A stretch of 64,000 bases of DNA from Naegleria gruberi (taxonomy: Eukaryota), in the NCBI GenBank assembly GCA_000004985.1, contig GG738851.1; one strand, written 5' to 3'. A program made the position numbers and the translations under genes. Under the pieces are notes generated by a model. That model saw only the letters and a program-made list of their open reading frames with translations. It searched no databases and was not told where the DNA came from. This document shows, in pieces, positions 13,704 to 58,207 of the stretch (its first letter is position 1; each line of letters starts with the position of its first letter).

Positions 13704-13775
13704 GGGGACCAGTGGGAATCGAACCCACGGCCTCTCGCACCCAAAGCGAGAATCATACCACTAGACCATGGTCCC
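13704..13775 (-). tRNA. tRNA-Pro(TGG), 72 nt, intact.
   Basis: The reverse complement reads GGGACCATGGTCTAGTGGTATGATTCTCGCTTTGGGTGCGAGAGGCCGTGGGTTCGATTCCCACTGGTCCCC. The 7-bp acceptor stem, the T-arm GTGGG/CCCAC and the anticodon stem are all perfect. The anticodon loop is TTTGGGT. A T-run follows, consistent with a Pol III terminator. Confidence 0.9.
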
Positions 13776-23526: not shown

Positions 23527-26500
23527 ATGTTGCAGAGCTGTGCAAGAAGAGAGAAAAACTGGGTGCTGAGTTTCGCTCTAATTATCCTTTACAACATGCT
23601 GATCACACTTCTCATCCTACAAGAACCAACACATGCAACCATGTGTAGATTTGGATCACCAACATTTAATCAAAGAGATTTGTGTTCATCTGTTACAGAA
23701 GGATCATTCCGTCCTTCATGGTGCAGTGAACATAATCCTTTTGCTGCTGTGCCTCACTTGTTTAGTGACAACAAGTTTCCGAAGTGGTTAAATGTAGAGG
23801 ATGGAGCAATTTGTTCCACATCTCAGCCATACATATTCAGCTATATCAATGGAACACTGATTGATAGACCTCAAAGTGAAGATCCAAACAAATACATCTC
23901 ACCAAGAGATAAATGTAGATATATTTCAAAAATTAACACCATAGAGTTTACTGCCTCAGATGACAAGAATCCACAACGATATGTGGTATTGGGTTTAGTA
24001 TCTGGTCAGATTATTCTTATGAACTTTAACAGTGATGAGACGTACTCAGTGGGAAAGACTGATGATATGACCAATATTAGAACATTGGAAACTTTGACAA
24101 ATGGAACTGATTTATATGTGTCCAGTGTTTCTTTTGGTAATTCTGTTTCGTTATTTTATGGTACATCCAATAAGATAGACAACGTTAGATCATGTGGAAA
24201 TATTTTAGAGGTTGAACCAGACAGCGAATATGCACCTGATGTAAGGTTAATCGTGCATGAGAGAAAAATTTATGCATCAGTTGTTGTTTACAATAGTGTA
24301 GAGCAGAGCTTCTACATTCACTTTTACAGACTCTTTGGTTGTTCCTTTACAAAAGAGTTCCAATACAAGATTAAGGAGAAATGGGATTCAAATCTTGACT
24401 TTAAGGTTTCCTCTCAAGTAGGAGGATTCAAGAATAGTCTTACAACGCAAAGTTACCAAAGTGTTAGAACACTATTACAATTTTACACAACCAAGCATGT
24501 GAAAATTATTGAAATGACAACCAAGAATATTGAAATGGATTTGACTACTGTCGATGATTCTACCTTCTTTGTGGCTAATAGCACTGAAGTGATTACGGGC
24601 GCCACTATTGCTTATGAACAAATTAGAAGAGTTGATTTTAGCCAATCTTCTTGTGTTAAAGTTGTTGCAAATAAGGCTCAAGGAGCCAATTTGCTGGTTA
24701 CTCTTAATAGAAATGGTCAGACCATTTTAAGAGCAAGAAACCTGTTAGAGTTTGCAAATTATGCATTCTTTGAAAACCCTGACAGATCTTACTCTAATCC
24801 AGTAGGTAGAACTGTTCAGTGCAATATTTTGAATGGAACATTCTACGATACTAGAACTAGTAGCTGTGTACCATGTTATGAAACAGAGACAGTAATTACA
24901 GAAATTGGTTCTGGAGAGGAAATTCAAGAAATAAGGTAGGTAGTGGATTAATTTTTTCTTTCTAATGTTTTTGCAAAAAAAGAACGAGATTCCATAATGT
25001 ACCGATGGATTATGCTCAATTCTTTGATATTGACTTGGCTGAAAAGCTTGATATTAACGCACTCTGCTATGATATTATGCAAACACCTGCTCTTGCTAGC
25101 TTGTGTCAACAAAACCTCAATCAATCCAATTGTGCTCTAGAGGTCTTTTCCACTTTTGGTCAAACGTTTCTTCCAAACTTGTTGAGTGATTTTTGGGTTA
25201 ATCAAGTATTCATTTCCAAGACAGGTAAAGAAGTTCTAGTTTATGGCCTCCAACAAGAGATGTGTTCTCTTAATGGATTATATCTTGATACTTACAACAA
25301 GATTAGTTTATTGGGAGAGAGTGATTTTATGGATATTACCAGAAATGCACAACACATGTTCGTAACAATTTCAAGAGAACGTTGGGAGCTTCAATCTATT
25401 AATCGATTCTATAGCATTTGTAAGCAATTAGAAATTAATCCTGATGACCCATTCTTGAAACCATTTGCTGAACAATGTAAAGCCAATACACCAACTCCCG
25501 TCACACTCAATCAATTTGGACAATATACATCTAGCTGCTTTAGTGGAATGTCATGCCCATCACTTAAAGAGGTAGAAATAGTCAAAGTTCCTGATGGATA
25601 TTACACATCAAGACCTAACGCTGTGAAGGAATGTGAAAGTACCTATTTCTGTTACCAAGGCATCAGACAAAAATGTCCTCAAGGGTTTAAATGTCCTTAC
25701 AATAAGATGAACAAACCAATTGCTTGTAAATTTTCAAATCAAAATGGAAGGAGAAGAGATGTCAATTCTTGGGATACACCAAAGGGATCAGATACATGTT
25801 TCTCACCAGGAAACAGTGTTGCTCAACCATGCCTTAACGGAACAATTTGTGTTACTCCTTATTTCCCACCACTTCCTATTTCACCTGGGTTATATCTAGA
25901 AGGAAACAAGATTAGAAAATGTAATGTTGGTGATTATTGTAATTTGGGTCGTTTTGTTGGCTCGAACGAAAATAGTTCAGTATTACAATGCCCTGAAAAC
26001 ACTTATTGTCCTGAGCCAGCGATAATGGAACCATCTCTGTGTATTCCAAATGAAACTATGGCATTGTACTGCCCTTCTGGAACAACAACAAGAATGCCCT
26101 GCAATAGGGGATACTATTGTCCAAGACCTAGTATCCAAACACCTTGTAAATTGACTCAATATTGCGATGTTGGATCCTACGTCCCATCTCCTTGCCCAGC
26201 TGGCTATTACTGTCCATCACCTTCAGAGAAATTGATTTGTCCAAAGGGTTATTATTGTGTTGTGGGTAGTGTGTACCCAACTGGTTGTCCAACCTTCTCA
26301 ATCTGTCCAGAAGGAACCAAGGCCTATGAGGATTATGCATTGGGTGTTTTAATTGATATTTTAATTGCTGCAGCTGTTTTCTTGACTTACAAAATTTACG
26401 TATGGACCAAAGCATGTTGGAATAAATTCCAAGAAAAGAGAAGAAATAAGAAGAAGGAAGAAAGAGCTCAAAAAGTACTTAGCACTGCTCAGTTGGATCC

Positions 26501-28591
26501 TTTAGTTTCATTCTCTCAATATATCCCTAAGTTGACTGTTTCAGAAGTTATGGAAGGTTTATATAAGGAGGTTAGAGTTGAAATTGCATTCGAAAATTTG
26601 TCCCTCGATTTGAAAACCAACAATAAGAGAATTTTACATAATTTAAATGGTAAATTCAGAGCTGGTAGATTGACCTGTATTATGGGCCCTAGTGGTAGTG
26701 GTAAGACCACCTTGTTATCAGCTATTAGTGGTAAGGCACCTTATGCCAATGTGGTTGGTGATATCAAGATTAATGGTGTCAAGAGTTCCATGAAGAAATT
26801 CAAAAACGTTTGTGCATTTGTTCAACAAGAAGATTGTATGCATAGAGAGTTGACTGTTGAAGAATGTATTTATTTCTCTGCCAGAACTAGACTGAATGCA
26901 AAAGTGAGTCAAAAAACAATTGATTCCATTGTAGATGGTGTTATTCAAATTTTGGATTTGAATCACGTAAGACACTCAATTATTGGCGATGAAACAAAGA
27001 GAGGTATTTCAGGTGGTCAAAGAAAGAGAGTCAGTATTGCTATGGAATTGGTTGCTTGTCCATATGTTTTATTCCGTAAGTTTCAATTTTATATATAATG
27101 TTAACACTTCTCATAGTTGATGAACCTACTAGCTCCTTGGATGCCTACAGTAGTTTTGAAGTATCGAAAGCAATGAAGGATATTGCCTCTAGTGGTATAA
27201 CAGTAGTGGCAGTGTTGCATCAACCTAGATTTGAGATATTTGAAATGTTTGATGATGTTGTCTTGCTTGGTAATGGAGGTAGAATTGTTTACATGGGACC
27301 TTCTAAGGATGCTCTGAACTATTTCTCTGAGAAACTTCAATTGGAACCTCCTCCATTTGTTAATCCAAGTGATTTCTTCCTGGATGCTATTTACGATCCA
27401 AGTTTCACTTATCAAAATCAATCTAAGAGAACTGGAAAATATGTTAAATCTATGACCTGCCAAGAAATGTTTGATTTGTGGGAAGAAAATTCCAAGCAGA
27501 TTCAGGCCACTCCAATTGAAGCCAATATTTCATATGAATCTCTTAGAAAAGAGGAGAAATCCAGAGGACAAAATCCACTCATTCATTTGTATATGTGTAT
27601 TAGAAGATCATTCATATTGAGAATCAGAGACATTATGGGATTCTTTGTTGATTGTCTGTTAGTTTATATTGCAGGATTGGCACTTGGTATGATTTTCTTA
27701 AAGGATGCCTATGTTGGACCACTTCCTGAAGATATTATAGATACATGTCCTGCTGCTATTAGAAAGATTTGTGAATATCCATTGAATAATCCAATTATCA
27801 ATGTTGCCAGTACAATCCCTCTTGCCTTGGGATTGTGTGCAGGTATGTCTTCACTTGGAACATTTGGTACAAGACAAGAACAAGTAATTTTCAAGAAGGA
27901 ACAAGCTGCTGGATTATCTGTCATGTCCTATTTCTTGTCGAAAATGTTAGAACAAATTCCAAATATTGTTCTGGGTCCAGTTGTGTTCCTTTCCATTTTC
28001 TTCTCACTCTATTCACCACGAGCTACTTTCTGGGAATATTATTTGGTACTTTTGATGATGCACTTTACAACATTTGGATTAGGAACATTGATAAGTGTTT
28101 GTGTCAAGTTGGATTTGATTCAATTGGCCACAGCTGTCTTGATTCTCGTTTCACAACTTGTTGGAGGTAGTAAGCCAACTATTCCACAAATGAAAGAAAT
28201 TATTCCGCCACTCTTTTGGATCAGTTGCGTCTCCTATGTCAGATATGCACAAGAAGCATTATATTTAATGGAAATCAAGTACTATAAGGATATATTCGAT
28301 ATCAGGTCCTCTTTGGAAGTATTTGATTATGATTTGAGTAATATTGATTTCTGTATTGGAATGATCCCAGTTTTTGGTGTTGCCTTTAGAATTTTAACCT
28401 TGATAGCTCTTTATCAGAAGAGTGATGATTCATTGTGGAGCACTCTTTGGATGTATTTTACTTATTATTCAAATGTTGATAATTTGAAACTAACTGCTAA
28501 ATCATTCTTGAAGAAGTTTAAGAGAACTAAGAAAAAGAATGAAAACGAAGAATTATTACTCAGCACCAACGGTGATACAATAGTGCAATAA
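23527..28591 (+). CDS. ABCG-type (White-like) half transporter of 1657 aa with a large N-terminal extracellular domain. Layout: signal peptide, about 900-aa ectodomain with GCC2/GCC3-like Cys repeats, a TM helix, the NBD, then a 6-TM domain. Exons: 23527..24935, 24983..27075, 27117..28591. Introns 24936-24982 and 27076-27116.
   Basis: NBD motifs are present: Walker A GPSGSGKTT, Q-loop, ABC signature ISGGQRKRVSIAME, Walker B VLF|LDEPTSSLD (split by the 41-nt intron GTAAGT…CTCATAG), and an HQP H-loop, followed by six hydrophobic helices. The N-terminal region carries repeated CPxGYYCP / YCP…C units and a TM helix (ALGVLIDILIAAAVFLTYKIYVW) just before the NBD. The first junction uses donor AG|GTAGGT and acceptor AAAAAAAG|A. 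The total length is divisible by 3. Confidence 0.7.
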
Positions 28592-42229: not shown

Positions 42230-42684
42230 ATGCGTCGACCGGGAATTGAAATTTCCTTTTTTGGAACTCATTTAACTTTTAATTTTATGATGAAATTATG
42301 AATGTTTTATTTTATTATTATTCATGATGTGAAACATCATGTTGAATTCTGTTCATTATTTTTAATTCATGATGTGAAACATCATGTTGAATTATTAACA
42401 AATGTTGTTCTTCAATTTTTCATTGAATGTTGGAAATATTGGAAAGTTGGAAATAAAAGTTGGAAGTTAGGTAACGGGTTATGGAATTACCTAATGTGAA
42501 ATACATTGTAACAGAATTAACAAGAATAAAAGCAAAATCCTACATAGAGTTGGAGAACGGGAAATGAAATTCCCAAATTGAAATTGAGAAACAACTATTC
42601 ATTTCACAATAATTCATACTATCAAAATGAATTGAACCCGGGTCACGGCGATGGCAACGCCGTATTCTACCACTAAACCATCGA
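42230..42684 (-). pseudogene. tRNA-Gly(GCC) gene split in its T-loop by a 378-bp insertion. The 5' part is 42684..42629 and the 3' part is 42250..42230.
   Basis: The 5' fragment reads GCGTCGATGGTTTAGTGGTAGAATACGGCGTTGCCATCGCCGTGACCCGGGTTCAATTC and the 3' fragment reads TTCAATTCCCGGTCGACGCA plus T5. Joined they make a perfect 71-nt cloverleaf with acceptor GCGTCGA/TCGACGC, T-stem CCGGG/CCCGG and anticodon GCC. TTCAATTC is present at both junctions. Confidence 0.8.
42251..42628 (-). mobile_element. 378-bp non-coding MITE-like insertion inside tRNA-Gly, flanked by an 8-bp direct duplication, TTCAATTC.
   Basis: It contains two perfect 29-nt direct repeats (ATTCATGATGTGAAACATCATGTTGAATT at about 42316 and 42365), each an imperfect palindrome. 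It also has a (GTTGGAA)n microrepeat at 42425-42465, an 8-bp inverted repeat TTAGGTAA…TTACCTAA at 42467-42494, and an A-rich end. There is no ORF and no clear TIR. Confidence 0.6.
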
Positions 42685-42878
42685 CGCTTCTTATTAGTCT
42701 ATCAAATATTATAATAATAGATAGTGTGATTTAATAAACTGTCATCAATGAAGTGTGAACAAATGAATGGAGCGCCACATTACCAAAAAAAAATATCAAC
42801 CCTAAACGGTTTATCGTTTCAACATGTAGCCAAATTTTTCAAGAACAAAAAGCAATAATTTATCACCAACAAGAATAC

Positions 42879-45686: not shown

Positions 45687-46607
45687 TTATTTCTTTGAAA
45701 TGTCGAGCATGAATTTGAAAATCGCAATTGGTGGAATATATTGGGTGACACCCAAAATTTCAAATCCAAGTTTCTGGTACAGTCTTCTAGCACCATATTG
45801 AAGTGAGCTAGTCTTGAGAATGATTCTATTCATTTGTAATTCTTGAGCATACTTGAAGACATATCTCAATAGAACAGTAGCCACACCTCCACCACGATAT
45901 GAGCTCTTTACACTCATTCTTCTAATTTCAATCATTTTCAATGGATTGATTTGATACTTTTCATATTCTTCAATGAATTCAGCATCTTCAACCTTATCAC
46001 CTGGATAAATCCACTTATCGAGAGCAACATGACCAACAATTTCATCACCATCCATAGCCAAAAAGAAATTATTCTCTGGTTTGCTCTTATTATTTGCATA
46101 ATAATTATTGATATCTCCCAACTCGTTTGATTTTCTATTCTTCATAATGTACTTTCCCATATCCTTAGCAATAATTGGCAATAGCACAAATTTAAAAACA
46201 GCATACAACATTCCACTCAATAACACCAAAAATCCAACATAAACCATCAGTTTCAATCTTGTCACTTCCACAACTTCAACACCCAACAATTTTCCAATCA
46301 AAAACCACGAAATATAAAACGTAGACCAAATGAAAAATTGCAACTTGTATCCATAATATTCCTGAAACAAGGCCACCAATGAAGTACTTCCATTTCCTTG
46401 ATCCACACCAAACAATAGACCAACAATCTTTCCATAATCATTGAACAAATCTTTCGGAACACCATCCATCATTCCGTTCGTAAAAATGTCGTGTACTTGA
46501 TTTTGTATTTCCGAACGTATCTTTTCCTCATCACCACCATCATGATTGAGCCTTCGCTGGACCAACTCATTGAACGATAAAACTTCGAGTTTGTTGTTTT
46601 GTTTCAT
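45687..46607 (-). CDS. Membrane-anchored GNAT N-acetyltransferase (NAT8/camello-like), 306 aa.
   Basis: Two or three N-terminal TM helices are followed by a GNAT core (…IVGHVAL…IRRMSVKSSYRGGGVATVLLRYVFKYAQ…LYQKLGFE). Confidence 0.55.
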   Translation of the reverse strand: MKQNNKLEVLSFNELVQRRLNHDGGDEEKIRSEIQNQVHDIFTNGMMDGVPKDLFNDYGKIVGLLFGVDQGNGSTSLVALFQEYYGYKLQFFIWSTFYISWFLIGKLLGVEVVEVTRLKLMVYVGFLVLLSGMLYAVFKFVLLPIIAKDMGKYIMKNRKSNELGDINNYYANNKSKPENNFFLAMDGDEIVGHVALDKWIYPGDKVEDAEFIEEYEKYQINPLKMIEIRRMSVKSSYRGGGVATVLLRYVFKYAQELQMNRIILKTSSLQYGARRLYQKLGFEILGVTQYIPPIAIFKFMLDISKK

Positions 46608-47176
46608 TTTTTTGTGTTACTTTTAAAAACTTTGTCATCTTTACAAGCAAACCAACAAACTTGAGGTTTTATCGTTGAAAATATCAGACAGATATATCTA
46701 TTGAATAACATTGAATTTCCATAGTTGAAATTTTCACACGAATTGGTAAAAGGAAAAAGACTACAGCACCACAGGTTCCCAAGTTGTCTCCAACCTCAGT
46801 ACTGATGTGGCTCGACGATGCTTAACTTCTCAAATCGGACGGGATGAGGTGCATTCATCGTGATATGGCCGTAGCCATTCATGGTATGAAATCATTCCTT
46901 ATTAATTGAAATACTTTCTTTATGTGTGAAATATACATATGTTTTTCTTTTCAAGACCGGACTTGAAAATTAGGTAATGAGCCTTGAATATCCAATTTAT
47001 GAATCAGACCGTGTATACCTCCTATTGAACATGTTGAATCGAAACGTTGTATGTAGGAAAGTAATTAAGCTAATTTATAGAGCTAAAAGAAATTCCAATC
47101 CGATCATACTTTTTTCCGAAACCACTATCCCAAATCATATTAGAGTTGAAGAACCTTTCAGAGCTTTGTCAAAGGG

Positions 47177-49248
47177 TTAATATTTTTTCTCATTGGAATG
47201 GAGTATGGCATTGGTACTGCCATTAGATTGCATCTTTGAGTTTGGAATAAATCTTCCTTCTCTAGTTTTTAAACTATTTGGAAGCATCATGAATAATTCT
47301 CTTTTTTCCTTGATACCCTGAAGTGAATGATATCCATAGGAATTAAGAAAGAGTTTTCCACATTCTTCCTCGATATTTGAATTATTTTCCAACATGTCAT
47401 ATAGTTCCTTACTAATAAACGTGGATCCTCCCAATGCAATATCTGCTATTCTCGCAGCTAAATTCACTCCAGGTCCAAAGTAATCTGTTCTTTTTGTAGT
47501 TGGATCAAGTTGTGCAGAGTATTCACCTTCACTCAAGAAATGTAATCCCATTCTAACTCTAAAACCATTGAATATTATTTGACCATCGTCGTCCACTGTT
47601 TCTACATTTGTTGGGAATGATAATAGTGATGGAGGCCAATCTTCTTTCATCATACGTGTATGTATCAAATTTACACATTTGACAGCATCTACAACTGATC
47701 CAAAAGCAACCATAAAGGAATCACCTTCTGTTTTAACTTCATATCCATTAAATGCTGTAAGAAGCGACCTCACAATTTCATGATGCCTCTTTATACAATG
47801 ATCCATATCCTCTTTTGGGACATGCTCCCATATTTTGGTTGAGTTTTGAATGTCTGAAAACATTATCAAAATGGGTTTACCAGAAGGTCCTTCTTCAATA
47901 TAACTCATAATCTTGTGCAATTCCCTGTGTTTTCTCACGTAATAACATCTCACACCACCAACCAATGCCAACGTAAAACACAAAGACAATGCAACAGAAC
48001 CCACAGCAATCATTGCATATCCAAACTGTTCCAAATGTGGTAAAGAACTCAGAGTGAGTGTCCCACAGGATATCTGGTTAACAATGCTGTTAACCAAGTG
48101 CTCCTTATATGAGTTTGGAATGGGGGCAAAATAATTAGTCTCAAATATCAGGTCAGATGTTGATGGAGTTGAAATTGTATAAATCCATGATAGAAAGTTG
48201 AATATGAATTTCTTCTTATCGCAACTTGAAAGGGTTTTTCTAAAAAGAAAATAGCTCACACCTGCACAAGGATAGCTTTCTGCGTCTCCATCAACAATTT
48301 CCACAAAATAATTGTCAACAGTTAGAAAATTCTGAGCAGCAGCTTTGAATGAGCTAATGCTTGGAGCTACAGGATTTCCTGCCTTATTAAGTATTTTCGC
48401 AACTGGAATTGACATGAAAGCTGCATCAGCAGGGCTGCCATATCCAATAGAATACTCCAATTTAATAACACTTTCAGTTACAGCAAGACTTGTTAAAACT
48501 GAAACAAAATTGGTACTTGTTATATTCGGAAACATTGTAACTTTACCATATTTCCATAAGGTAGGACTGAAATGTGACAGAGAAGAAGTAAATATACTTG
48601 TAGAACCTGAAGATGTAGATCTTACTATAGGCTGAATAGGATGATTTGGTAATGTTTCACTATTGGTCTGCTGTATTCTGTTGTCATTCCAATACTGAAT
48701 TTCACCAGAGAATATACCAGCAACAGCACTTCTACTCAATATAAGTTGTGACTTAAAGTTGGGAATATTGTACAACAAAGCTACCCCAGAAATAAAGAGA
48801 GGAACCATTTCCAAGTTTTGATCTTCTAGTTCGGTTTTTGTTAAAGAGGTTTCAGAAACTGCAAAATCATAATCTCCTTGTTTTAGTTTGTTAAGCCCTT
48901 CACCAGATCCTAACAGAGTTAACAATCAATAGTTCAAACAAACTTACCCACACTGTCATATAATATTGAGTAAATGGGACTATCTTGAATACTATTGAAT
49001 AACGAAAGCAAAGAATTCATTACTTGCTTTGCGAGAGAACTTCCTCCTCCTCCGACTATTAAACTTGGGATATCATCATTATGATTTTCATTATTTACAG
49101 TAGTGTACAATAGTGATAGTGTTGGGGTTTTGGAACATAAATATACAAATAATAGGGGAATGAGTATAGTGGTCATCAATAGTGCAAGAGTAATAAGTAT
49201 TATTGGTCTCAGTGTGTGAGAATCAGATTCTTTGTGAAATCCTAGCAT
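47177..49248 (-). CDS. Receptor-type class III adenylate/guanylate cyclase, about 677 aa. Layout: N-terminal TM anchor, extracellular PstS-like phosphate-binding (PBP) domain, a TM helix, then the cyclase catalytic domain. Two exons: 49248..48948 and 48909..47177. Intron 48910-48947.
   Basis: The catalytic domain reads ILIMFSDIQNSTKIWEH…VKTEGDSFMVAF…FRVRMGLHFLSEGEY…GPGVNLAARI. The ectodomain matches PstS motifs: GSGEGLNKLKQGDYDFAVSETSL…EMVPLFISGVALLYNIP…SAVAGIFSGEIQYWND…LPNHPIQPIVRSTSSGSTSIFTSSL…IGYGS. Donor G|GTAAGT, acceptor TGTTAG|GA, and the phase matches. The first exon encodes the TM segment ILITLALLMTTILIPLLFVYL. Confidence 0.7.
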
Positions 49249-55336: not shown

Positions 55337-58207
55337 TTAAAGATTGGCATAGGTAGCCTTTCTCTTAATACAAGAATAAACACAGAGACCAATATTGACA
55401 GCTACAGAAACGAGTAAAGCAGTAGCCAAAGAGGTAATGATTAAGGCAAATTCCCAATTGAAAAAGTTTACAATATTGGATGGAGAAACATCAGTTACAT
55501 CGAGGGATCTTCTAATTCTTGAGGCCTTAGTAATCTTCTTTCCATTAATAACCAAACTGTATTTTTGTGGACCGTGTGGAACATTATGTCCTTTAACAGT
55601 TACAATCAAATCAGTATTAACTGGTGGGAGTGGAATCAAAATCTTTTCAACATTGTTCAATCTGTCAGGTTGATTATTATTGTACAAGTGGTTACCATAG
55701 ATGGATTGAACTTCACCATTTGTTTCATATTCCAATTTCAAGTCCAAATCATTGACAAGGGCAAGAGAGGCCATTGGAGAAGCAGGATAATCAGTCCAGG
55801 CCAAAGTAATTGCCAATTCTGTGGCATTATCACCAACATTGAAAGTATATGAGTGAATGATATCAGTGGTAATTTCTTGTCTATCAATAACGAACAAATC
55901 TTGTGGAGTTTGTGGGTTATTGGCCAACTTTAAGGTGTTTGACAAATTAATGAGGCCGTGTCCTTCAAAGATAGTTCTGTGCTTCTTATTGAAATGAGTG
56001 AAAGAGTCAGTCTTTCTAGCAAGTCCCTTCATTCCTCTAGCACTTTGAATCAAAATTGCCTTAATAAGTGCAGCAGATGGTTGAGTATATTCAGCATTAA
56101 CTGATGGTTTACCATATGGATAAAAACCATCAGTGAAATACTGTCTTACAAGAGTGGCAGCTGAAGCAACGACAGGTGTTGACATTGATGTACCTCCCAT
56201 TTCTTTCAATTGTAATTTCATATCATTCTTATTGGAGAGAGAACATTTACCTTCTTGAGAACCGAAATGAGATCTGGCAGAAAGCAAGAAATAACCTGGA
56301 GCTACAATATCTGGCTTGATACGACCATCGAGTGTTGGTCCCAATGAACTGAAATCTGCCAAGTTTTGTTCATTGAAGAATGGTTTCAACTTTTCATCTT
56401 CCAAACTCTTCAAGGCACACTTTTGACTGCATGCAAATGAAACATTGAAATTGAGTTTCTTCTTCATAATCTTCAATTTGTGTTTGAATTTACAATTGTC
56501 TCCCATGTATGCATTACATCCTTCTTCGGATTTCAACTTGTCAATGGCTGAACACTTCTTAATATTACAGACGCCACATTTACAATTGTACTTTTTGGTC
56601 AATTTCTTACGTAAAATATTGGCACGTTGTGTGTAATTTCTATATTTGAGAGCTTCTTTCCATGATTCAATTCCACTGACAGAGGCACCAACAATGATAG
56701 AATTCTTGGCTTGCTTTGATGGACCAGTCAATGTCATGTAACCTTTGGCACCAGAATTACCAGCAGACCAAACTACAAGGAAATCATCATGTTCATATTG
56801 GAATTTGTCAATTTCTTGTGTTGATTGAGTGTATCCATTACCAATCTTACCACCCAATGAATTGGATGAAATACGAGCACCCAATTTATATTGAGGTTCG
56901 AATAAACCACTATACAAGTCAATTGGTGTAACCAATTTGTTCTTTCCTGGACATTTTCCTTCTGGATACATGTAACATGGACAAGCATCGAATGAATCAC
57001 ATTGACATCCACCATCCAAATCACAACCAACATCAAAGAAAACCAATTTAGAATCTTGTGCAATACCATTGTGTTTACAAATTGGACTATCTGGATAGAG
57101 ACATTTACCAGCAAGAGTTCCTGAAGTGTGAGATCCATGTCCATGTCCACCATCTTTTCTATCCATAAAAGCAACATAGGCCTTAATCTTACGATGATTA
57201 CTTTCAACAGCTTGAGGAGCATTTAAAACAGTTCTAATTAATGAATCACTACTTTGAATGACTGGAACAGAAGCAGCTGGATCATGGAAGAAACAATGAT
57301 CAACATCCAAACCAGAATCAGTAATGGCAACTGTTTGATTCTTACCAGTAATTCCAACTTGATAGAATGGACCATCACCAATACTTGCCCTTGATGATCC
57401 CTGTTGAACAATTAAACGAGCATTGTAATTTTCTGGAAGGAAACCATCACGTTCCATGTCGAATCTTTCAATCCAGTGAATGGCTGGATGATGAGCCAAA
57501 ATATCAACAACCAGAACTAGATCATGTCTAGAACAGATTTGTAAACTAATCATGACCTTTCTATTGGAAACAACTCTCAAATATTTTACATTGGTGAGAT
57601 TTTCACAGGCACTTCTAATTTGTCCAGCAACATCTCTGGCAGATTGTGAAGAAAGTTCAGGAACTAAACTAACACTCATGTGAACAATAGCTCCACCAAC
57701 CTTTCTTCCAGGAGTATTTACACTACAGCTTTCGAATACTCCAGATTCCATATCACGAATCAAATTTGGATCAACCTTCATCTTTGGAGTGAGTGGAATC
57801 AAATGAGAAACTTGTGGATAAGCTTGAACCTTCTTCACTTGATCATTATTAATATAAACTAAATACGAATGTTCTGGAATGTATTGTAATAATTCACAAC
57901 CAGTTGACTTTTCAAAAGTAATTTGTACCTTTTCAGTCAATTTGATATTTTCCTTGAATTTTACAATATATTGGTGTGGAATTAAATTAGATTTATCCAA
58001 TGGAAGACCATCAGAAAGTTCCAAATAATTTTCCTCATTAGTTTCTTCTCCTTTACTCAAAACATTTGCCTGTTTAATAATTCCCTTATAGTATTGTTTA
58101 AAACGATCCAGATATTCATTGGATGATCCAGATTCACTACCCATGCACAGGGTGATGAAAAGTGCAAAAATTATTAAAACAAGAAAGAGCGTTAAAAATC
58201 TCTTCAT
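55337..58207 (-). CDS. Subtilisin-like serine protease (S8 family) of 956 aa with a signal peptide, a Cys-rich insertion and a C-terminal TM anchor.
   Basis: Catalytic-triad motifs are VAITDSGLDVDHC (Asp), HGHGSHTSGTLAG (His) and GTSMSTPVVASAATL (Ser). The C-terminus has the hydrophobic helix FALIITSLATALLVSVAVNIGL. Confidence 0.8.
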   Translation of the reverse strand: MKRFLTLFLVLIIFALFITLCMGSESGSSNEYLDRFKQYYKGIIKQANVLSKGEETNEENYLELSDGLPLDKSNLIPHQYIVKFKENIKLTEKVQITFEKSTGCELLQYIPEHSYLVYINNDQVKKVQAYPQVSHLIPLTPKMKVDPNLIRDMESGVFESCSVNTPGRKVGGAIVHMSVSLVPELSSQSARDVAGQIRSACENLTNVKYLRVVSNRKVMISLQICSRHDLVLVVDILAHHPAIHWIERFDMERDGFLPENYNARLIVQQGSSRASIGDGPFYQVGITGKNQTVAITDSGLDVDHCFFHDPAASVPVIQSSDSLIRTVLNAPQAVESNHRKIKAYVAFMDRKDGGHGHGSHTSGTLAGKCLYPDSPICKHNGIAQDSKLVFFDVGCDLDGGCQCDSFDACPCYMYPEGKCPGKNKLVTPIDLYSGLFEPQYKLGARISSNSLGGKIGNGYTQSTQEIDKFQYEHDDFLVVWSAGNSGAKGYMTLTGPSKQAKNSIIVGASVSGIESWKEALKYRNYTQRANILRKKLTKKYNCKCGVCNIKKCSAIDKLKSEEGCNAYMGDNCKFKHKLKIMKKKLNFNVSFACSQKCALKSLEDEKLKPFFNEQNLADFSSLGPTLDGRIKPDIVAPGYFLLSARSHFGSQEGKCSLSNKNDMKLQLKEMGGTSMSTPVVASAATLVRQYFTDGFYPYGKPSVNAEYTQPSAALIKAILIQSARGMKGLARKTDSFTHFNKKHRTIFEGHGLINLSNTLKLANNPQTPQDLFVIDRQEITTDIIHSYTFNVGDNATELAITLAWTDYPASPMASLALVNDLDLKLEYETNGEVQSIYGNHLYNNNQPDRLNNVEKILIPLPPVNTDLIVTVKGHNVPHGPQKYSLVINGKKITKASRIRRSLDVTDVSPSNIVNFFNWEFALIITSLATALLVSVAVNIGLCVYSCIKRKATYANL

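Follow-up and report, generated by a model that had tools for sequence, protein, structure and literature searches.

The 64,000-nt stretch of Naegleria gruberi contig GG738851.1 analyzed here (the window; 34% GC) carries on its minus strand a candidate receptor cyclase gene, which runs from an ATG at 49246-49248 to a TAA at 47177-47179, both limits being exact. After splicing, the coding sequence is 2034 nt, or 677 uninterrupted codons, and its product joins a PstS-type phosphate-binding-protein domain, through a transmembrane helix, to a class III nucleotidyl cyclase domain (Table 1). A preliminary description of this stretch, made from the letters alone, had proposed a PstS-like receptor cyclase at 47177-49248 encoded by two exons, and the proposal holds: the exons can be joined over an intron of 38 nt to give a product colinear with its homologs. 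Without splicing, the gene appears as two open reading frames (ORFs) of 104 codons (49248-48934) and 582 codons (48925-47177). The intron (48947-48910; GTAAGTTTGTTTGAACTATTGATTGTTAACTCTGTTAG) has the form GTAAGT...TTAG and contains an in-frame TGA.

Several lines of evidence support this gene model. The junction, ...YDSV/GSGEGL..., is free of gaps in the family alignment against homologs that have no intron there (e.g. ...YNPIGSGEGL... in Willaertia), and exon 1 contributes a first strand, a helix and a ligand loop that would otherwise be missing from the PstS fold. The 38-nt intron is identical base for base in an environmental contig (L003) that comes from an independent assembly and shows five coding differences from the window gene. 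In a more distant relative, encoded on a eukaryotic metagenomic contig of 41 kb, there is a 52-nt intron (GTATGT...TTTAG) about 35 codons further downstream, and the spliced product is likewise colinear. It is true that gene callers of the prokaryotic style split the gene into products of 104 and 582 aa, as might be expected if the exons belonged to different genes or if the locus were bacterial contamination. We find such an artefact scarcely credible, given that exon 1 completes the PstS fold, the junction is colinear with unsplit homologs, the intron boundaries are canonical, the neighbors are eukaryotic genes of N. gruberi NEG-M, and the flanks are 99% conserved in environmental Naegleria contigs. 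Because the products of the two exons are colinear with homologs, a single gene is supported, and the best explanation of the sequence would be an intact, two-exon N. gruberi gene for a receptor-type adenylate cyclase.

Table 1. Features of the candidate receptor cyclase gene, with positions in the window and residue numbers of the 677-aa product (TM2, second transmembrane segment)
Feature	Position	Strand	Basis
Exon 1 (residues 1-100 and first base of codon 101)	48948..49248	-	ORF list; splicing; alignment to PstS GAGASF/GGGST motif
Exon 1 content: start codon, hydrophobic segment, first PstS strand, first phosphate-binding loop (GGGGSS, S70-S71-L72)	48948..49248	-	
Intron, 38 nt	48910..48947	-	Removal restores frame and colinearity; identical in L003
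Exon 2 (residues 101-677 and stop): remaining PstS domain, TM2, helical linker, cyclase	47177..48909	-	ORF list; splicing
N-terminal hydrophobic segment, residues ~15-37, signal anchor or long signal peptide	49138..49206	-	Kyte-Doolittle maximum 2.73
PstS-type type II periplasmic-binding-protein ectodomain, residues ~61-392	48035..49068 (span including intron)	-	Pfam; NCBIfam; PDB; family hidden Markov model envelope; AlphaFold2; Foldseek
Predicted phosphate ligands: S71, L72 (backbone), S102, E120, R197, S201, G202 (backbone), S203		-	Residue table
TM2, residues ~396-420	47951..48025	-	Hydropathy; within continuous predicted helix 393-436
Cytosolic extension of transmembrane helix, residues 421-436, short rigid linker	47903..47950	-	DSSP of model (exon-2 positions 298-341 = 393-436)
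Class III nucleotidyl cyclase domain and post-catalytic motif, residues ~440-654	47249..47893	-	Pfam; GRESAG4 alignment; family alignment; model pLDDT mostly >90

The preliminary description had assigned the ectodomain to the PstS type from its motifs, an assignment borne out both by searches with hidden Markov models (HMMs) and by structure prediction. Pfam model PBP_like_2 (PF12849) matches at 82.4 bits (E = 6e-23) against a cut-off of 27, and the NCBIfam PstS model TIGR00975 matches at E = 7e-47 over profile positions 3-310 (308 of 315). The PstS motifs are present as GSGEGL, DFAVSE, LEMVP, GVALLYNIP, IFSGEIQYWND and VRSTSSGSTSIFT. Over the whole search of PDB sequences, the best matches are PstS 8ODS (2e-22) and the GRESAG4.3 cyclase 1FX4 (1.5e-20); 17 distinct solved PstS sequences match the ectodomain at E < 1e-10, the best at 1e-18 to 1e-22. 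As sequence matches, those of the ectodomain and of the cyclase are both far beyond chance.

An AlphaFold2 model of residues 102-395, based on an alignment of 26 sequences, has a mean predicted local distance difference test score (pLDDT) of 87.9 and a predicted template modeling score (pTM) of 0.86, and predicts the two-lobed fold of type II binding proteins. (The structure models start from the exon-2 product; the first 40 residues of the fold, which exon 1 encodes and which include the S71 loop, lie outside them.) When the model is compared to the PDB by Foldseek, all 49 of the 49 best matches are phosphate-binding proteins (PstS, PhoX and DING proteins; TMq 0.83-0.87, root mean square deviation 2.0-2.5 Å), and no binder of sulfate, molybdate or phosphonate is among these 49 neighbors. 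The model superposes on phosphate-bound PstS from E. coli, Burkholderia, Xanthomonas and Yersinia with TM-scores of up to 0.87.

PstS grips its phosphate through eight residues that make twelve hydrogen bonds. One of these bonds is short and runs to an Asp; discrimination among anions depends mainly on it, and it is credited with the selectivity between phosphate and arsenate (PMC5381212). In HMMER alignments, E. coli residues S38, D56, R135, D137, S139, G140 and T141 correspond to N. gruberi S102, E120, R197, T199, S201, G202 and S203, respectively. The N-terminal loop GAGASF (8ODS, 35YT) aligns with S71-L72, with S70 preceding; the E. coli ligands in this loop we take to be those numbered T10-F11. 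On these alignments, all eight predicted phosphate-contacting positions are kept or conservatively changed (T to S, D to E and T to S). The coordinating Ser, Thr, Arg and acidic residues, whose retention the preliminary description had proposed to examine, are thus retained in the sequence.

Two cysteines set this domain apart. C330 (48221-48223) and C382 (48065-48067) are near-invariant in the family of fusion proteins described below and absent from the bacterial PstS sequences retrieved, and the same pair is found in eukaryotic receptor-type PstS modules that lack a cyclase (alignment A1). The pair likely forms an extracellular disulfide and is a likely marker of a eukaryotic receptor-type clade of PstS domains, and it is reasonable to suppose that the disulfide ties the flytrap's tail down onto the second lobe.

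The predicted topology is type I, with an extracellular sensor, one transmembrane segment and a cytosolic catalytic domain of the GRESAG4 type. At the N-terminus, where the preliminary description placed a membrane anchor, there is indeed a hydrophobic segment, but it may not be an anchor. In relatives, the corresponding segment is a short and typical signal peptide of the cleavable type, with only a few residues between it and the first PstS strand. The N. gruberi segment is longer and lies 28 residues ahead of that strand, and it too may be a cleavable signal peptide. The second transmembrane helix that had been described is recovered by hydropathy as TM2, and the basic stretch that follows it, RCYYVRKHRELHK, puts the cyclase on the cytosolic side of the membrane and the PstS domain on the extracellular one. 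In a model of the exon-2 product (pLDDT 88.6), TM2 and 16 cytosolic residues form one unbroken helix of 44 residues, 393-436, which starts 11 residues after C382 and stops ten residues short of the first catalytic strand (447).

The C-terminal cyclase domain is complete, as the preliminary description had it, and matches Pfam Guanylate_cyc (PF00211) at 75.8 bits (E = 4e-21; cut-off 21.9). The closest solved cyclases are GRESAG4.3 (1FX4; E = 4e-22) and GRESAG4.1 (1FX2; E = 2e-20) of Trypanosoma brucei. Alignment to GRESAG4 identifies D453 and D497 as metal ligands, K493 (in EVKTEGD) and D576 (in TDYFG), and N583 and R587 as transition-state residues. These six, which we take to be equivalent to the canonical class III catalytic residues, are near-invariant in the family. 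Since a single chain carries all six, the domain would be competent to form a homodimer with two active sites. In class III cyclases, a Lys/Asp pair specifies ATP, while Glu with Cys or Ser specifies GTP. The K493/D576 pair predicts ATP as the substrate; of the two products that had been suggested, cAMP or cGMP, it is cAMP that is retained as the likely output and cGMP that is dropped. The domain also has a GRESAG4-like post-catalytic P..L..R..F motif, and at the place of the trypanosomal delta-subdomain it has a shorter insertion.

The fusion is not peculiar to N. gruberi. An exhaustive HMMER search with the exon-2 product finds many proteins that match it over PstS domain, transmembrane segment and cyclase in one stretch; a word-index homology search, whether with a single query or with a 13-member alignment, recovers almost none of them. 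Pfam confirmed both domains in nine of ten proteins tested, and local HMMs find a PstS-like domain combined with a cyclase in 30 of the proteins retrieved. The compact layout occurs in Willaertia magna (Heterolobosea; KAL9656567.1, a "hypothetical protein"), in two copies in Andalucia godoyi (Jakobida; labelled "Phosphate-binding protein PstS"), in Entosiphon sulcatum (Euglenida) and Papus ankaliazontas (Kinetoplastea), and on several metagenomic contigs, where the IMG label is [quoted passage not shown] A second group, with a long spacer or extra domains, includes proteins of Ostreococcus tauri, Euglena gracilis, the diplonemid Artemidia, the amoebozoan Endostelium, Moumouvirus and Pandoravirus. 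Judged by these sequences, the PstS-cyclase fusion is a family spread across Discoba and beyond, not a one-off. The preliminary description, which named no precedent for a phosphate-specific PstS module fused directly to a cyclase, is right insofar as the full-text literature we searched, largely outside subscription journals, yields no description of a fusion between PstS or PBP_like_2 and a cyclase. The architecture itself is not without precedent, since it recurs across protists under automatic labels, one of them being "phosphate-binding protein/class 3 adenylate cyclase." Because the fusion is not unique, it counts as a variant of the receptor-type cyclases rather than as a system of a new kind, and it would appear that the family is uncharacterized.

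Conservation within the family bears on its function. Mean column identity in the 13-member core alignment is 26%, yet R197 and S201 never vary and G202 and T204 hardly do. Every core member except one, the metagenomic protein P0070, retains both the GSG serine and the acidic residue (D or E), and the phosphate signature holds in most of the cyclase-fused PstS domains. The ligand positions are the most conserved columns of the ectodomain, a pattern to be expected from selection for ligand binding and, in our view, the strongest indirect argument for function.

P0070 (JGI metagenome, 676 aa) has lost its phosphate ligand set (DQS, AG and SLT stand in its place) and its catalytic residues as well (FAEISN, HEQCW); it resembles a pseudo-receptor whose two functions decayed together. 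In the giant-virus proteins P0078 (Moumouvirus australiensis) and P0156 (Pandoravirus dulcis), which carry the name "Ser/Thr kinase receptor," two tandem PstS-like modules with degenerate ligand residues precede the cyclase. Among the longer sequences, P0079, P0080, P0127 and P0143 resemble kinetoplastid proteins and have an N-terminal extension, residues 1 to ~390, without ligand motifs. Compared with the PstS profile, the extension gives a weak colinear match (hhalign probability 33.6%, E = 4e-4), and it may be a degenerate, distal second flytrap. A further set, P0041 (Chromosphaera perkinsii), P0042 and P0055 (Entosiphon sulcatum), consists of very large proteins with three to four tandem PstS-like domains, in which a cyclase was not detected. 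P0041 adds Ephrin_rec_like repeats, P0042 and P0055 add DUF7630, and a TRP-like membrane domain is present in both P0041 and P0042. In P0041, the phosphate ligand set is retained by the first three PstS domains. The PstS module with the cysteine pair appears, from these occurrences, to be a widely reused eukaryotic receptor ectodomain, found on cyclases, kinase-cyclases and TRP-like proteins.

We propose, with moderate confidence, that the N. gruberi protein works by an orthophosphate-induced closure of the flytrap that is relayed by a rigid transmembrane helix to a dimeric adenylate cyclase. Orthophosphate would bind in the cleft between the two PstS lobes, held by the set of Ser, Thr, Arg and carboxylate side chains, and the flytrap would close on it. 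Closure would then pass through the C-terminal tail of the ectodomain, probably pinned by the C330-C382 disulfide, and along the continuous helix formed by TM2 and the linker. The two catalytic domains of the dimer would shift relative to each other, altering the synthesis of cAMP. We infer phosphate as ligand, the disulfide, the dimer, the coupling and any downstream physiology; the effect could be of either sign, activation or inhibition. The wider statement, that the compact signal-PstS-transmembrane-cyclase proteins of Discoba, including that of Papus, are cell-surface orthophosphate receptors that turn external phosphate into cAMP, is a tentative one, plausible but short of probable.

A number of observations weigh against the proposed mechanism. 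The first group concerns the identity of the ligand. The TIGR00975 score of 160 bits is below the equivalog cut-off of 205 bits, and that for NF008171 is 89.5 against 339; the ectodomain is therefore a PstS-family domain, not an ortholog or equivalog of the transporter-type PstS. E120 replaces the carboxylate of Asp56, the residue of the short bond, and affinity or selectivity could differ as a result. T199 replaces Asp137. Given that the Asp bond is the main discriminator among anions (PMC5381212), these two replacements and the score below the equivalog cut-off would suit a ligand other than orthophosphate, be it a different tetrahedral oxyanion (arsenate, sulfate, phosphite or phosphonate) or a compound that is phosphorylated or condensed, pyrophosphate for example. 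On balance this seems unlikely. The remaining ligand positions are all canonical. A carboxylate is kept at position 120, which, by extension from the PstS literature, fits a protonated oxyanion such as phosphate, and Glu is also found at the Asp56 position in all six of the retrieved bacterial PstS-type sequences that have this position, two of them annotated as PstS and from Streptomyces. Thr at the Asp137 position is the substitution of the D137T mutant 1QUL, crystallized with phosphate bound and one of the best matches. The structural neighbors described above are phosphate binders throughout, with none for sulfate, molybdate or phosphonate, and the PstS pocket is fully buried (PMC5381212), which leaves little room for larger ligands.

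The second group concerns whether the ectodomain binds anything at all. P0070 and the giant-virus copies are without the phosphate ligand set, which means that the scaffold can persist without phosphate binding. Trypanosomatid receptor cyclases, moreover, are without a known ligand; acid, hypotonic or proteolytic stress activates them via dimerization (PMC6027212). By analogy, the PstS-like domain could be a ligand-independent scaffold or dimerization module, with the cyclase set by pH, by osmotic or membrane stress, or by the abundance of the protein. We regard this as improbable: the strong conservation of the ligand columns in an ectodomain family only ~26% identical is hard to explain without selection for binding, and in P0070 the degenerate binding site coincides with a degenerate catalytic site, which suggests joint loss.

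The third group concerns the integrity of the gene. Q631 (LQG, in the last strand) stands where other members of the family carry Lys or Arg, the basic residue of the L-K/R-G motif of class III cyclases, and may affect the enzyme. In metagenome run ERR1078381, from a Naegleria 99% identical to N. gruberi, the Logan assembly (L001, ~2677; window ~47427-47430) has a 4-nt GAGG deletion that shifts the frame after ARIADIAL and would truncate the cyclase. A similarity search returned no N. gruberi-labelled protein for 47177-49248, and an exact look-up of the 677-aa model in a collection of 15 billion proteins, in which the neighboring NEG-M proteins are present, found no match; these statements of absence cover near-identical sequences only. 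Taken together, the three might point to a decaying or catalytically inert member of the large Naegleria cyclase repertoire. This we consider very improbable. The ENA assembly of the same run (L003) has the gene intact over 2034 nt, as does the window, and the two differ at three synonymous and two conservative non-synonymous sites (V to I and S to T). The resulting ratio of non-synonymous to synonymous change, pN/pS, is ~0.19, from very small counts, and gives signs of purifying selection on the cyclase gene. The six canonical catalytic residues are present, and Gln at position 631 is common to all five of the five heterolobosean-type members, which makes it a trait of the lineage rather than decay. 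The reference annotation may lack the gene or mis-model it. The Logan deletion reflects an error of assembly or else a minor allele; a pseudogene made by a fixed frameshift was considered and rejected, because the ENA assembly is intact.

Comparison with known systems helps to place the protein. The receptor adenylate cyclases (RACs) of trypanosomatids (ESAG4/GRESAG4; 1FX2, 1FX4) also have a large extracellular binding-protein-like domain, one transmembrane segment and a cytosolic class III domain that needs dimerization (PMC6027212), and the N. gruberi protein shares their catalytic subtype and post-catalytic P..L..R..F motif. The RAC ectodomain differs, being ~90 kDa with two flytrap modules that belong to Pfam Peripla_BP_A-cyclase (PF25493), PF25495 and Peripla_BP_6; the N. 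gruberi protein has no match to PF25493 or PF25495. The idea that RAC ectodomains are themselves diverged PstS modules was rejected at the sensitivity available (hhalign probability 0.3% against a T. cruzi RAC, and no cross-matches at E <= 10). It looks as though the N. gruberi protein works like a RAC while standing outside the RAC ectodomain family. While the ligands of the RACs are unknown (PMC6027212, PMC7719234), the N. gruberi protein has an obvious candidate.

The bacterial PstS of the PstSCAB transporter (E. coli 1IXH, X. citri 8ODS) has the same type II fold (TM 0.83-0.87) and the same eight-position ligand set. The N. gruberi domain differs from it in being fused through a transmembrane segment to a cyclase, in being eukaryotic and encoded with an intron, in its conserved cysteine pair and in its sub-equivalog score. 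Natriuretic-peptide receptors have a binding-protein fold of type I, a peptide ligand at the dimer interface, a kinase-homology domain with a coiled coil, and specificity for GTP. What these animal receptor guanylyl cyclases do share with the N. gruberi protein is a flytrap ectodomain, a single transmembrane segment, a class III cyclase and a dimer (PMC6027212).

PBP_like_2 (PF12849) ectodomains have been described on class-C-like seven-transmembrane (7TM) receptors in fungi, Amoebozoa and Plasmodiophora (PMC3251606, PMC10445921, PMC4815078). The Pfam sensor there is the same, but the output runs through the 7TM domain and G proteins instead of a fused cyclase, a distinction drawn from the descriptions of those receptors. 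Receptor cyclases of Acanthamoeba, Physarum and giant viruses have an extracellular receptor domain, a transmembrane segment and a cyclase that lies between two kinase domains (PMC4053784, PMC5203793). These two papers do not identify the "extracellular receptor domain" as PstS-type. The viral proteins P0078 and P0156 match the PstS-family HMM in tandem and the cyclase HMM, as the N. gruberi protein does with a single module, and this suggests a PstS origin for the extracellular receptor domain in the Acanthamoeba/Physarum family of cyclases. That type differs from the N. gruberi protein in the kinase domains around its cyclase and, in the viral copies, in having two PstS-like modules with degenerate ligand residues. 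In Pseudomonas aeruginosa, the pair CtpL-PstS shows PstS acting as a phosphate sensor for chemotaxis signaling, and not in transport only (PMC8050422). There, a separate PstS docks on the chemoreceptor, whereas in N. gruberi sensor and output make up one polypeptide.

Extracellular phosphate sensing in eukaryotes is poorly resolved, the known routes being transporters that act as "transceptors" and intracellular sensing of inositol pyrophosphates through SPX domains. The N. gruberi protein may be a direct sensor of external phosphate, and the simplest form of such a pathway would be a receptor with phosphate binding outside the cell and cAMP synthesis inside. If the wider reading is true, the compact Discoba proteins would be the first extracellular phosphate receptors on a single polypeptide to be known in eukaryotes. 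They would also be the first trypanosome-type receptor cyclases whose ligand is identified, and the much larger families of amoebozoan, giant-virus and multi-PstS receptors would then descend from the same phosphate-sensing module. For Naegleria, phosphate would become a possible environmental cue acting on cAMP. The reading also suggests what the ligand may be in a protein related to the trypanosome receptor cyclases, a group whose own ligands have been unknown for decades (PMC6027212, PMC7719234). Both halves of the protein come from families with well-established assays and mutants, and the hypothesis is therefore directly testable.

The surroundings of the gene identify the window as nuclear DNA of N. 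gruberi strain NEG-M. The neighboring ORF at 45687-46607 (minus strand) is letter-identical to EFC48489/XP_002681233, a GNAT acetyltransferase, and that at 55337-58207 (minus strand) to EFC48492/XP_002681236. Further ORFs in the window are typically eukaryotic and encode WD40, Pet127, WASH subunit, TRAF/RING and XPG nuclease proteins and a DUF4116 repeat protein. No paralog of the PstS or cyclase domain was found elsewhere in the window, nor are there pstCAB-like genes within its 64 kb; the sole nearby ABC transporter is of the ABCG type and 20 kb away. For that transporter, an ABC_tran ATPase ORF (25005-27098, plus strand) overlaps an ABC2_membrane ORF (27098-28591, plus strand) by one base, and the two are probably one ABCG-type gene in which a short intron or a frameshift breaks the reading frame. 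EFC48492 is publicly named "abc transporter B family protein," probably a misannotation, as its only Pfam match is to the Peptidase_S8 subtilase family. ARAGORN identifies tRNA-Pro(TGG) at 13704-13775 and tRNA-Gly(GCC) at 42617-42688, both on the minus strand, of which the Rfam gathering threshold gives only tRNA-Pro. A complete 5S rRNA gene (46758-46876, minus strand; Rfam, 105 bits) lies amid these protein-coding genes, only some 300 bp beyond the stop codon of the cyclase gene.

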